Positions 57,651 to 61,194 are shown, counted from the stretch's first letter. The stretch is 64,000 nucleotides of DNA from Alphaproteobacteria bacterium (GCA_038146985.1 JAYQSQ010000018.1:133349-197348); one strand, 5' to 3'. Notes: generated by a model not told the origin, from the letters alone. Program-made: numbers and translations.

Positions 57651-58061
57651 TCAGATCTTGAAAACGGCCTCGACCTTCTGTCGCATCTGATCGAGCGAGA
57701 ACGGCTTGGCGATATACGCCGTGACGCCATGCTTGGCGGCGTCGAGGACGAATTCCTTGTTCGCGTTCGACGTGAGCATGATGAACGGGATGCGCGGATA
57801 GAGTTTACGCACGGTCCGTAGAAACTCGATCCCGGTCATGTTCGGCATGTTCCAGTCGGATATGATGAGCTGGAAATCGCCGTTGCACTCCGCGAGCTGT
57901 TTCATCGCGTCCAGTCCGTCCCGGGCAACCACGACTTGTGTGATACCCATCAGCCTGAGGGCGCCCCGCGCGAGCTTCGCCGCGAGCGGTTCGTCCTCCG
58001 CGATCAGGACCCTCAGCCCTTCGTAGGAGCGTTCCAGGCTGGCGTTGGGAGGCGTCGTCAT
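57651..58061 (-). CDS. single-domain CheY-like response regulator
   Basis: LRVLIAEDEP...LIISDWNMPNMTGIEFLR...MLTSN...AYIAKPFS. The DWNMPNM block is characteristic of chemotaxis CheY. Start set at MTTPPN (58061), 31 nt after the kinase stop. Confidence 0.85.
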   Translation of the reverse strand: MTTPPNASLERSYEGLRVLIAEDEPLAAKLARGALRLMGITQVVVARDGLDAMKQLAECNGDFQLIISDWNMPNMTGIEFLRTVRKLYPRIPFIMLTSNANKEFVLDAAKHGVTAYIAKPFSLDQMRQKVEAVFKI

Positions 58062-58092
58062 GCCGGTCGAATATCCATTCTCGAAATACGAC

Positions 58093-60414
58093 TCACGGTG
58101 TCTGGAGGTTAACATTCTGGCGTTGTTCCATGTAGTCCCTTAGGAGCCGTCGACCTTCGTTCACGGTGTCGGGGAGACGGGCGCACAATTCTCTCGCCTC
58201 CCCCATCTGGTGGCTTGCGGCGGCGATTTCAACAGCCATCGCAAGCTGGAAAGTTCCCCTCAGGCCGAGAGCCCCGCTCGCACCCTTCAGGGCATGGGCG
58301 ACACCGGCCAATGCCTGCTCGTCATCGTCCTCCAGGGCCTTGGTGAGGTTGCCGAGATGCCGCTCGGCGGCTTCGTCATAGTCGACCAGCAGGTCGAGCA
58401 CGAAATCATCGCCGAGTTGCTCGCAAAGCGATTCCGAGACGCTCGGGTCCAATGCATCGCCATCCGCGCTCAGGGACTCGGCGATCGAGCTTGCCTCCTC
58501 GGGCGCGCCATCCGCGCGGTCCTCCGAGATCCCCAGGGCCCGGGCCATGGCCTGTGTCAGACTGACCGGGTCGATGGGCTTGGGGACAAAGTCGTTCATC
58601 CCGGCGGCGAGGCAACGGTCGATATCTTCCGCCATGGCGCCGGCGGTGGCGGCAATGATCGGGACCGACCCGACCGGGCCGCTCAATGCGCGGATGTGAC
58701 GGGTCGCGCTGATACCATCCATTTCGGGCATTTGCATGTCCATCAGGACAAGATCAAAGGTCCCGGATTTCACCGCTTCGACGGCTACCGCGCCGTCACC
58801 GACGATGGTGACCGCGTGACCACCTTCATCGAGATAGCCGCGGGCGACCTTTTGGTTGACCAGATTGTCCTCGGCGACCAGTACCTTGAGCGGCGGCAGG
58901 CTGGGGACGCCGATGGATTGCGTCTCCGTTCCGTCGGCCTCGGCGGGAAGAAGGTCAAGATCGAAATGAAACTCGCTACCTTGGCCTAGGGTGCTTTTCA
59001 CGCCGATCGCGCCGCCCATGAGTTCGACCATCTGCTTGCAGATCGACAGGCCGAGCCCGCTGCCGCCGTAACGCCGGGTTATCGACGCGTCGACCTGGCT
59101 GAAACTTTCGAACAAAGTGTCCAAAGTCTGGGCCGGTATGCCGATCCCGGTATCGATCACGGAAAAGCGCAGCGCGACCGTCCCACGGGCGGAAGAAGCG
59201 TCGGTTCGGCGCGTAACCTTGACCGTAACCCCTCCGGCCTCGGTAAATTTGACCGCATTGCCGATGAGGTTGAGCAGGACCTGGCGGAGCCGTCCTGGAT
59301 CTCCGGTTACGAATGGCGGCGCCTCGGGATCGATTTCGTAGTCGAGCGCGAGGCCTTTTTCCTCGGCCCGCCCGGCCATCAGCGAGAGCGATCCCTCGAC
59401 CATGCGGCGGAGATCGAAACCGACCGACTCAAGGTCCATTCGGCCCGCCTCGAGTTTCGAGAAATCGAGAATATCGTTGAGGATCGTCAGCAGATTCTCG
59501 CCGGACTCCAGCACGATGGCCGCGCGTTCCCGCTGCTCCGGCGCGAGATCCGTTTTCAGCAGCAGCCTGGTCATGCCGATGACGCCGTTCATCGGCGTGC
59601 GGATTTCGTGGCTCATCATCGCGAGGAATTCGGATTTGGCGTGGGTCGCGGCCTCGGCCTGGTCTTTCGCGTCGCTTACATCGGCCATGGCTCTTTTAAA
59701 GACCGAAAGCGCCGCCGCCATGCCGCCGATTTCATCCCGGCGGTTGAGCCCGGGAACCGCGATATCGGTTTTGCCGTCCGCGACCGCGATCATCGCCCGT
59801 CCGAGCTGGTTCATGGGGCGGACGATGGTATAGACCACGACGATGCCCACCAGGATCGACAGTCCCAGGACGACGGCGACGATACCCCAGGTTACGGTCC
59901 GGGTGCGCTCGACCCCGTTCTGGGCGCGAAGCCAGAAACGATAGCCGTCCTCGGCGGCTGTCTGAACCAGGACATCGAGATCCTCTCTGATCAAGGCCGC
60001 GAGTTGGTCGCGGCGGACACGTTCGCGTTCGGGTTCGACCCCGCCGGTCATCGAAACGGCCCCCGTGGCCGCCACCGACCACTGTCCGACCGCCTCCCGG
60101 AGCGTGGCGACCAGCGTGTTGGTTCGCTCGGACAGGCTGCGTTCCTCGACGATATCGATATCCGTCAGGAACTTATCCATGAGGTCGCGTTGACGGGCTT
60201 CGTCGCGACGGCGCCGGAGCTGGGCTTCCAGATCCATGACCATGAAGCCGGTCTGAGCGGCTCTGGCGAAATTGATCGCCTGCAGCGGCTTGTCGTACAT
60301 CGACTGGGCAAGCCCGCCCAGCATCCAGGTGGAAACCAATGTGGTTCCCGCCAGAAGCGCCGCGATGGCCACGGCGACGAGCAGCGCGATGATGAATTTG
60401 GCCCGGATCGACAT
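58093..60414 (-). CDS. hybrid sensor histidine kinase (TM-periplasmic helical domain-TM-HAMP-HisKA-HATPase-REC-Hpt)
   Basis: Two TM segments flank about 150 aa. H-box [12 protein letters not shown] boxes ([24 protein letters not shown]), receiver VLVAEDN...[13 protein letters not shown]...KP, and Hpt [12 protein letters not shown]. Confidence 0.92.
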
Positions 60415-60423
60415 CCCGGCGGC

Positions 60424-60744
60424 TTACTTCGATACGGTGATCTGCAGGCGCATTCTGGGGTGGATCCGGCACCGCACCTTGGCGACCACGGCTTCCTCGA
60501 AAGTGACGTCCCGGGTCTCACCCGGCTCCTGCAGGCCGATATCGAACACCGCGCCCTCGGTTTCGGAATAGACGTTATGGCCGTAGATGTCGTTGTTCAC
60601 GAAGGTCACGATATCACCTACCCGGACCTCGAGAGCCGCGACGCCGAAAGAACGCCCGCGCTGTTCGACCACCAGAGTTGCCGCCCAGGCGGTGGCGGTG
60701 ACGGTACATGCCGCCAGTGCGGCAATGATTCCCACCTTTTTCAT
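60424..60744 (-). CDS. periplasmic amicyanin-like cupredoxin, copy 2
   Basis: Signal peptide MKKVGIIAALAACTVTATAWA. VGDIVTFVNNDIYGHNVYS and C-terminal CRIHPRM give His...Cys-x2-His-x2-Met type-1 Cu ligand spacing. Confidence 0.75.
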   Translation of the reverse strand: MKKVGIIAALAACTVTATAWAATLVVEQRGRSFGVAALEVRVGDIVTFVNNDIYGHNVYSETEGAVFDIGLQEPGETRDVTFEEAVVAKVRCRIHPRMRLQITVSK

Positions 60745-60837
60745 AATTTCTCCCGTATCTGGAGCCTGGGGGAAGGCGGTCGAAACAGTTTAGGCGCGAC
60801 AGCGGTTCCGGTCTATTGGCCGGTCCGCTCCCCGGCG

Positions 60838-61194
60838 TTACTTGACGGTCACCGTCACCTGCATTTTCGGGTGAATCCGGCACCGCAGATCGAAGGTGCC
60901 GGGAATATCGAACACCACGGTCTTGCGGTCGCCTTCTTCCTGCAGTCCGAGATCCAGCCAGCCGACCGGTTCGCGCGAATACACATTGTGGGCATAGGGG
61001 TCGCCATTGACGAAGACGAGGGAGTCGCCGGTGTTGATCGACAGCGACGACACACCAAAGGAACGGCGTTGCTGGACCAGTTCGTGAGTTGCCGGCCGCG
61101 TCGCCGCGTGTACCGCAAAGCGTACCGCGCCAAGAGCGGCAACCGCCAGCGCGGCGACGACGGCAATCCTGGATGGTCGCATCATTGTTTCCAT
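60838..61194 (-). CDS. periplasmic amicyanin-like cupredoxin, copy 1
   Basis: Signal-like N-terminus. TGDSLVFVNGDPYAHNVYS and CRIHPKM. Clearly paralogous to copy 2. Confidence 0.75.
   Translation of the reverse strand: METMMRPSRIAVVAALAVAALGAVRFAVHAATRPATHELVQQRRSFGVSSLSINTGDSLVFVNGDPYAHNVYSREPVGWLDLGLQEEGDRKTVVFDIPGTFDLRCRIHPKMQVTVTVK

Follow-up and report, generated by a model that had tools for sequence, protein, structure and literature searches.

Recurrent linkage of cupredoxin, hybrid histidine kinase and CheY-like receiver genes points to a candidate periplasmic co-sensor in Alphaproteobacteria

Introduction

The subject of this study is a four-gene operon from an Alphaproteobacteria bacterium, located in a stretch of 64,000 nucleotides (GCA_038146985.1 JAYQSQ010000018.1:133349-197348) that is referred to below as the window and within which all coordinates are counted. 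The operon encodes two secreted cupredoxins (CupA and CupB), a hybrid histidine kinase with a periplasmic sensor domain and a stand-alone CheY-like receiver. Based on the recurrence of the cupredoxin-kinase pair in dozens of genomes with changing neighbors and outputs, we propose, with a confidence that stands about even, that these genes form a sensory operon in which one or both cupredoxins would act as the cofactor-bearing periplasmic co-sensor of the kinase.

Blue-copper cupredoxins are textbook electron shuttles. Our search of the full-text literature returned no case of a cupredoxin acting together with the sensor of a histidine kinase or a chemoreceptor, and no sensory role for a cupredoxin. 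Transmembrane sensing assisted by an accessory protein, on the other hand, is already known, so that the new element here would be a cupredoxin as a candidate accessory. For kinases and chemoreceptors devoid of a cofactor, the way in which the redox state of the periplasm or peroxide is sensed is for the most part poorly understood.

Results

Structure of the operon

The four genes are arranged co-directionally on the minus strand, as found both in our list of open reading frames (ORFs) and in public gene calls:

60838-61194, minus strand: cupA, 118 residues, Sec-exported cupredoxin with copper ligands H (AHNVYS)...C-R-I-H-P-K-M
60424-60744, minus strand: cupB, 106 residues, Sec-exported cupredoxin with copper ligands H56, C92, H95 and M98
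58093-60414, minus strand: hybrid kinase, whole gene, 773 residues
59815-60414, minus strand: kinase residues 1-200, with the first transmembrane segment (TM1), a periplasmic four-helix bundle (~31-173) and the second transmembrane segment (TM2)
58093-59838, minus strand: cytoplasmic part of the kinase, with HAMP, HisKA, HATPase_c, REC and Hpt
57651-58061, minus strand: stand-alone CheY-like receiver, 136 residues from M19

For the receiver, the mechanical ORF spans 57651-58115, but public gene calls and orthologues begin at M19, giving the start at 58061 and the length listed. The cupA and cupB genes are separated by 93 nt, and the stop of cupB is followed after 9 nt, in frame, by the kinase start (60414). 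A clear ribosome-binding site (GGGAGA) is present upstream of cupB; none was seen at the kinase start, which is consistent with translational coupling of the kinase to cupB. The G+C content is uniform over the operon region. An identical gene order is called on three independent metagenome contigs bearing an identical cupB product, which, along with the recurrence in dozens of genomes, argues that the arrangement is not due to chance. A scan for promoter consensus sequences gave no match, and terminator-like matches were uninformative.

Conserved linkage of cupredoxin and kinase genes

A comparative scan with family-specific patterns, covering one genome per species (185,579 species), yielded 62 loci; both the window proteins and seeds drawn from the loci themselves then served as queries against the ORFs of these loci. 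In 37 of the 62 a cupredoxin gene is located on the same strand and at most 400 bp from a gene for a kinase with a homologous four-helix-bundle sensor, and four further loci contain such a kinase within 4.5 kb of the cupredoxin. The initial annotation of this DNA, made from the sequence of the window, had tied the cupredoxins to kinase signalling and had suggested a co-occurrence analysis as a check; as far as the linkage is concerned, this idea is strongly backed by the comparative data. The kinase-linked loci span Nisaea, Thalassobaculum, strain BAL199, Telmatospirillum, Tagaea, Niveispirillum, Stellaceae and many uncultured Rhodospirillales. Cultured carriers are Nisaea denitrificans DSM 18348, Thalassobaculum fulvum and Niveispirillum lacus, all of the kinase type, and Ramlibacter species of a chemoreceptor type (see below); there are no model organisms among the carriers.

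The linkage is not mere synteny, since flanking genes are clade-specific and outputs vary. All-versus-all clustering of the locus ORFs revealed cross-clade recurrence only for cupredoxin, the kinase/receiver group, DUF4394, peroxidase, cytochrome c and chemoreceptor genes, while the neighbors of the window operon (fliL, an acyltransferase gene and a 115-residue ORF, orf115) are common only to the window and the Nisaea/Thalassobaculaceae clade and absent in other lineages with the triplet. The output types include the following: a hybrid kinase with Hpt and a CheY-like receiver, as in the window; a hybrid kinase followed by a HisKA-REC-adenylate/guanylate cyclase (confirmed by Pfam in L016 and L050, and assigned by similarity in L040 and L042); and a plain PAS kinase (L041). 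In addition, a GGDEF-EAL protein with a similar sensor is encoded ~1.5 kb from the cupredoxin, on the opposite strand, in L058. Neither a DNA-binding regulator nor recurrent copper-resistance genes (copA/cus/pco/cop) were found in any of the 62 loci.

A cofactor-bearing protein encoded recurrently beside cofactor-less helical sensors, with changing outputs and flanks, is the pattern expected of a sensory module with the cupredoxin as its probe. Overall, comparative sequence data make a good case for a functional coupling between cupredoxin and kinase. Co-variation and charge add weak hints in the same direction. In a mirror-tree analysis, the distances between cupredoxins and between sensor domains correlate with r 0.82 or, once the kinase core is accounted for, with a partial r of 0.45 (permutation p 5e-4), and cupredoxin distances follow the sensor domain better than the kinase core or the receiver. 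The kinase-linked cupredoxins have a basic copper loop, with four basic residues around the exposed copper-site His; their partner sensor domains carry a net negative charge (mean -7.7).

A secreted DUF4394 protein of ~270 residues, a family on which the literature search returned nothing, is encoded directly upstream of the cupredoxin in 12 loci from three groups: L005 (11114-11944, Pfam E 2e-64), L006, L008, L010, L011, L013, L024, L026, L027, L029, L033 and L035. Its gene follows the receiver in Nisaea and the second receiver in Azospirillum and Niveispirillum (gene order kinase, REC, REC, DUF4394, cupredoxin), and is absent from the window. This protein may be a third periplasmic component.

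Two cupredoxins with an intact type-1 copper site

CupA and CupB share 42% identity, and both carry Sec-type signal peptides (with cleavage after AWA in the AWAA site of CupB), the mature proteins having ~85-88 residues. Their ligand motifs are DPYAHNVYS...RCRIHPKM (CupA) and DIYGHNVYS...RCRIHPRM (CupB). Both match Pfam Copper-bind above its cut-off of 21.2 bits (22.8 for CupA and 32.7 for CupB), and CupA also matches Cupredoxin_1. The best matches of CupB among PDB sequences are amicyanins (E ~1e-6, ~30% identity), with the His/Cys/His/Met ligands aligned. An AlphaFold2 model of CupB based on an alignment of 23 family members (predicted local distance difference test, pLDDT, 88) is an eight-strand beta sandwich, for which a Foldseek search ranks amicyanin first (E 2e-8), followed by plastocyanins and pseudoazurins, with probability 1.0. 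In the family alignment (A1), H56, C92, H95, M98, N57 and the CRIHPxM motif are all invariant, and the H...C..H..M ligands are kept in all 73 cupredoxin copies from the 62 loci. As judged from sequence and model, CupA and CupB are cupredoxins with an intact type-1 ligand set, and copper binding is predicted for both. The CupA-type paralogue is confined to the close relatives of the window (L001-L003) and to metagenome proteins.

These results, including the profile and structure analysis that it had suggested, agree with the initial annotation, which had described two paralogous secreted proteins of about 90 mature residues with the full type-1 ligand set in amicyanin-like spacing. Its outline of the rest of the operon was also accurate: a cupB gene ending 9 nt before a hybrid kinase with a periplasmic helical domain of ~150 residues between two transmembrane segments and with its own REC and Hpt, and a stand-alone receiver with the CheY hallmark.

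The C-x2-H-x2-M loop is the shortest natural type-1 ligand loop, and CupA and CupB share it, along with the beta sandwich and the His/Cys/His/Met ligands, with amicyanin (MauC) from Paracoccus. On the other hand, their loop is basic (CRIHP[KR]M versus CTPHPFM in amicyanin), they are encoded with a sensor kinase and not with a dehydrogenase, and they score only 23.7 and 24.6 bits with the amicyanin equivalog TIGR02657 (cut-off 110.2). By these sequence criteria, they do not qualify as amicyanins in the strict sense.

A reading of cupB as a lipoprotein gene (LAAC, residues 10-13) was considered and rejected because the Cys is not conserved in orthologues, whereas the AWAA cleavage site is. Among the best library matches of the cupredoxin profile, proteins of ~260-3670 residues with 2-11 tandem cupredoxin repeats predominate, mixed with single-domain proteins of ~105-130 residues; some of the tandem-repeat proteins also carry CarboxypepD_reg, CARDB or cupin domains.

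A tripartite hybrid kinase with a cofactor-less sensor

The kinase starts with TM1 (~residues 7-30), a helical periplasmic domain of ~140-150 residues and TM2 (~174-198), followed by five domains all scoring above the Pfam gathering cut-offs: HAMP (193-236), HisKA (259-324), HATPase_c (371-488), a Response_reg receiver (REC, 511-623) and Hpt (675-752). The phospho-acceptor motifs are readable in the translation (SHEIRTPMN in HisKA, HALKGASG in Hpt, plus the receiver motif). By domain content this is a tripartite hybrid histidine kinase of the ArcB/TorS/BarA type. The best NCBIfam models are TorS, BarA and ArcB, albeit all below the equivalog cut-offs (475 of 676, 430 of 890 and 338 of 838 bits, respectively). 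The score with the heavy-metal sensor family TIGR01386 (CusS/CopS/SilS) is 116 bits versus a cut-off of 292.55, and the partner of the kinase is a bare receiver, not an OmpR-type regulator.

Residues 1-200 of the window kinase have no match in Pfam, and no match to 4HB_MCP_1 or TarH at E <=0.01. When 37 orthologous sensor domains (alignment A2) were scanned singly, 25 matched 4HB_MCP_1 (best E 3.6e-15) and six matched TarH; the window domain is 24-84% identical to these orthologues. An AlphaFold2 model of residues 1-215 (pLDDT 81) contains helices 3-66, 72-92, 96-123 and 129-212, of which the first is continuous with TM1 and the fourth with TM2, with the two shorter ones in between. The model and the Pfam HAMP match combine to a sensor of four antiparallel helices between two transmembrane segments, leading into HAMP.

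The nearest folds are the sensor-TM-HAMP fragment of NarQ, the PcaY ligand-binding domain and the Adeh_2942 sensor, all with the weak E-values that are usual for helical bundles in fold searches; XylFII-LytS is also among the structural neighbors. A profile of the sensor family had no match among PDB sequences, those of NarQ and NarX included. No Cys, His or Met residue is conserved in the periplasmic domain among the aligned orthologues. Conservation is concentrated in membrane-proximal motifs (GYRF among them), and the bundle also has several invariant or near-invariant polar residues, namely R51 (invariant), D41, R92 and W112.

A CheY-like receiver

The stand-alone receiver matches Pfam Response_reg at 92.5 bits and contains the motifs SDWNMPNM...YIAKPF. 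Its 50 best PDB matches are all genuine CheY proteins (68-85 bits), followed by a de novo designed protein (66 bits) and by other natural receivers at no more than 52 bits. Residues D13, D57, T87, Y106 and K109 are invariant in 32 receiver orthologues, with E/D at the D12/D13 position. Its identity with E. coli CheY is 35%, and it resembles enteric CheY in having SDWNMPNM and Y-x-x-KPF motifs, a full active-site quintet and both switch residues, Y106 and T87. Unlike enteric CheY, it falls below the NCBIfam CheY equivalog cut-off (84.7 versus 189 bits) and is predicted to be fed by the Hpt domain of a hybrid kinase and not by CheA. Of the residues on the FliM-binding face, Y106 is kept, K119 is present in 29 of 32 and A90 in 24 of 32 orthologues, V takes the place of I95, and neither V108 nor K122 is conserved. 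Its sequence thus marks the receiver as CheY-like, and the flagellar motor is a plausible target, given these features and the chemoreceptor-linked sister systems described below.

In an alphaproteobacterial variant, L036 (10678-11940), a CheY-like receiver is followed by a 278-residue Hpt-REC fusion whose own receiver is also of the SDWNMP type, which suggests an extended or branched phosphorelay.

A sister subfamily associated with peroxidases and chemoreceptors

Sister cupredoxins with an acidic loop (VECA[VI]HP[DE]MK) were found in 16 loci from beta- and gammaproteobacteria (Ramlibacter, Aquabacterium, Steroidobacteraceae, Muproteobacteria and Burkholderiales). Their genes cluster with those for a cytochrome c, a dihaem cytochrome c peroxidase and, in some cases, SCO1/SenC (in the Aquabacterium clusters L038 and L039). 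In L051, another SCO1/SenC gene lies ~1.8 kb from that of the cupredoxin. By its scores (190-229 bits to MacA/CcpA versus ~60 to MauG), the peroxidase belongs to the canonical bacterial cytochrome c peroxidases. Bacterial cytochrome c peroxidases accept electrons from both cupredoxins and cytochromes c. The peroxidase clusters are located as follows:

L039: 6885-10909
L047: 5294-8680
L044: 6898-10947
Also L034, L038, L043, L046, L048, L052, L054-L057 and L061

In 12 of the 16 loci a chemoreceptor gene is present as well, in at least three gene orders: peroxidase-chemoreceptor-cupredoxin-cytochrome c, peroxidase-cupredoxin-cytochrome c-SCO1-chemoreceptor, and peroxidase-cupredoxin-cytochrome c-chemoreceptor. 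These chemoreceptors have a helical periplasmic domain of ~150 residues with no CxxCH motif and no shared Cys, and the one from Aquabacterium (L039) is a member of Pfam 4HB_MCP_1. The peroxidase-cupredoxin-chemoreceptor clusters may be a peroxide- or redox-taxis module, and their existence provides an indirect argument for a motility output of the kinase-linked systems.

Other features of the window

Two flagellar genes lie in the vicinity of the operon:

62472-63002, minus strand: FliL gene
51687-52535, minus strand: flagellin gene

The initial annotation had pointed to both, and both were located; their proximity carries little weight, since this synteny is confined to the Nisaea/Thalassobaculaceae clade. 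Its statement that mau genes are lacking nearby also stands: neither the window ORFs tested nor the gene calls within 10 kb include any mau, che or respiratory gene, and cheA, cheW and fliM are likewise absent among these ORFs and calls. Judged from ORF starts and ten Pfam-tested ORFs (SAM synthetase and apolipoprotein N-acyltransferase among them), the remainder of the window is housekeeping. An Rfam scan returned a single sub-threshold match inside fliL (DUF805b RNA, 62817-62842, minus strand, 23 versus 35.6 bits), most likely due to chance.

The product of orf115 (61282-61629, minus strand, 87 nt upstream of cupA) is devoid of a signal peptide and has no match in Pfam, NCBIfam or PADLOC; its position is kept only within the Nisaea/Thalassobaculaceae clade (11 loci). 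The flagellin gene is flanked by genes for a carbamoyltransferase (50014-51579), an amidohydrolase (52739-53692) and a large protein with a methyltransferase domain (53716-55263), and the whole segment (50014-55263) may be a flagellin-modification island. On a public contig (L063), a DUF1217 protein and FliL are encoded on the side of the operon opposite to the flagellin region. Some 18 kb from the operon, the segment 37424-40455 (minus strand) codes for a 759-residue P-type ATPase whose N-terminus is rich in His (HCHAHKDH...HCHAHHGHG); two small ORFs that are paralogues of each other, 37424-37765 and 37762-38130, precede it, and together they may constitute a heavy-metal export locus.

Discussion

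Proposed mechanism

From the folds, ligand sets, domain order, phospho-sites and gene linkage conserved across lineages and output types, we infer a scheme that includes docking of the cupredoxin to the sensor, redox as the signal and a target of the receiver. The cupredoxin would equilibrate with periplasmic electron carriers or oxidants, for example with the cytochrome c pool or, via a peroxidase, with peroxide. Its Cu(I)/Cu(II) state would then alter the docking of the strongly basic loop at the copper site (R-C-R-I-H-P-K/R-M-R) on the mostly acidic bundle, and docking would in turn alter the conformation of TM2 and HAMP and the activity of the kinase. The phosphate would pass from His (HisKA) to Asp (REC) to His (Hpt) and finally to Asp57 of the CheY-like single-domain regulator, with an output that would be behavioural (probably motility or switching) and not transcriptional. 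Our confidence in this specific signal and output is low to moderate. Three reasons lead us to prefer redox over copper load as the signal: the sister subfamily sits in a peroxide-reducing electron-transfer chain; no locus has a DNA-binding regulator or copper-resistance genes; and the outputs (CheY-like receiver, chemoreceptor and cyclase) suit rapid signals. The second of these also favors a fast behavioural or second-messenger output over metal homeostasis.

A number of observations weigh against the co-sensor proposal, which rests wholly on comparative evidence. No redox partner gene was found near the alphaproteobacterial operons, and five loci (L007, L009 and the three from Ferrovibrio, L024, L026 and L027, which carry only DUF4394 and cupredoxin genes) contain no nearby signalling gene. 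An exhaustive representative search with the cupredoxin profile revealed no fusion to a signalling domain among the best 150 library matches, nor in any of the ten proteins checked by Pfam. The mirror-tree signal is weak and non-specific, as the sensor-receiver pair gives the same partial correlation, and the net charge of the sensor domain encoded in the window is only slightly negative (-2). When profiles of the kinase sensor and of the three groups of chemoreceptor sensors were compared directly, no significant match resulted, so that the tie between them rests only on the Pfam 4HB_MCP_1 matches of some members. Finally, R51 and the other conserved residues of the bundle could form a site for a small ligand, as in NarX and NarQ.

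Alternative explanations

The alternative that survives best concerns the output: instead of acting on the flagellar switch, the receiver could be a phosphate sink or could address a protease adaptor, a second-messenger enzyme or some other target. We consider this to be only slightly short of an even chance. The low score with the CheY equivalog, the loss of K122 and V108 of the E. coli FliM-binding face, the absence of cheA, cheW and fliM from the window, and the related systems with nucleotide cyclases as output, with two receivers or with an Hpt-REC protein are all in its favor. It has to be set against the clear gap in score between CheY and other natural receivers among PDB matches, the conservation of Y106, K109 and T87 (and, for the most part, of K119 and A90), and the clustering of the sister cupredoxins with chemoreceptors, i.e. 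with a motility output.

It is also conceivable, albeit unlikely, that no direct sensing by the cupredoxins takes place, and that they are ordinary electron carriers sharing a transcript with a two-component system, the bundle of which recognizes a small ligand of its own, e.g. an anion as in NarX and NarQ. Such a site could be made by R51, D41, R92 and W112, and the nearest structures are indeed NarQ and ligand-binding chemoreceptor bundles; moreover, the beta/gammaproteobacterial cupredoxin has an obvious electron-transfer job beside the peroxidase and cytochrome c, and the five loci without a signalling partner are readily accommodated. However, the tight same-strand adjacency survives across lineages despite changing flanks and output modules, and the alphaproteobacterial loci contain no redox enzyme for the cupredoxin to serve. 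The sensor-family profile finds neither NarQ/NarX nor any other solved sensor by sequence, and, as the system has no DNA-binding regulator, it is not evident how it could target the cupredoxin genes.

A copper-availability sensor, in which the kinase would read apo versus copper-loaded cupredoxin and thus report on periplasmic copper supply, appears to us quite unlikely, even though the gene-linkage data fit it equally, the type-1 ligand set is invariant and SCO1/SenC copper chaperones are encoded in the Aquabacterium clusters L038 and L039 and in L051. The lack of an OmpR-type regulator and of recurrent copA/cus/pco/cop genes in any locus, the score of the kinase far below the TIGR01386 cut-off, the better fit of CheY-like, chemoreceptor and cyclase outputs to fast signals, and the association with cytochrome c peroxidase and cytochrome c, which points to electron transfer, are all against it. 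Lastly, a classical amicyanin or respiratory cupredoxin serving methylamine dehydrogenase or another enzyme elsewhere, with the kinase nearby by coincidence, is highly improbable: amicyanin is the best PDB match by both sequence and fold and has a loop of the same length, but the TIGR02657 scores, the different loop sequence, the absence of mau genes among the tested window ORFs, the lack of any recurrent dehydrogenase family among the 62 loci and a recurrent adjacency to kinases that is not coincidental all speak against it.

Comparison with known systems

Several kinases are known to use a periplasmic accessory protein (TorT-TorS, LuxP-LuxQ, XylFII-LytS and QseG-QseE); these accessories (solute-binding proteins or a lipoprotein) inform the kinase of small molecules or of the state of the envelope (PMC12691602). 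The operon described here resembles them in having a separate gene for a periplasmic protein that adjoins the gene of a transmembrane kinase with a periplasmic sensor, and in its hybrid His-Asp-His-Asp phosphorelay; TorS is also the best NCBIfam match of the kinase core, albeit below the cut-off. It differs in that the partner would be a redox-active metalloprotein, in a pairing known here from the genes.

Copper-responsive two-component systems with a neighboring cupredoxin include CopRS/CusRS, CinRS-cinA and Pseudomonas aeruginosa PA2807. In these systems the kinase itself binds the metal, an OmpR-type transcription factor serves as the regulator, and the cupredoxin is among the targets under its control. 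The present operon shares with them a cupredoxin gene beside a two-component system and a periplasmic copper context. In contrast to them, its sensor is without His/Cys/Met conservation, its regulator has no DNA-binding domain, and the cupredoxin gene is directly upstream of the kinase gene on the same strand. Another copper two-component system is CorSR (PMC3707914).

In several known sensors of redox and energy taxis the cofactor is inside the sensor protein: FAD-PAS in Aer, a quinone or Cys in ArcB/RegB, and haem-PAS in the periplasmic Geobacter chemoreceptors GSU0582/GSU0935 (PMC3460858, PMC8396549). Here, too, the redox state would become a kinase or chemoreceptor signal, whereas a blue-copper protein, separate from the sensor and diffusible, would carry the cofactor.

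Implications

Extending the co-sensor proposal to both subfamilies, we tentatively put forward, as a possibility that falls short of even, a family of 'signalling cupredoxins': diffusible periplasmic blue-copper proteins whose oxidation state would be read by cofactor-less four-helix-bundle sensors, feeding a hybrid kinase and a CheY-like regulator in Rhodospirillales, and chemoreceptors encoded in clusters with a cytochrome c peroxidase in beta- and gammaproteobacteria. If true, this would be the first type-1 copper protein to serve as a sensory cofactor instead of an electron shuttle, and the window operon would provide a CheA-independent route to a CheY-like protein. Beyond solute binding, the accessory-protein principle (TorT/TorS, LuxP/LuxQ and QseG/QseE) would then also cover redox sensing by a metalloprotein. 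A cupredoxin as dedicated partner would offer a simple and modular answer to the problem of redox input into cofactor-less sensors, with a single redox probe and several interchangeable outputs, so that motility would be steered, or cyclic-nucleotide levels set, by periplasmic electron flow or peroxide.

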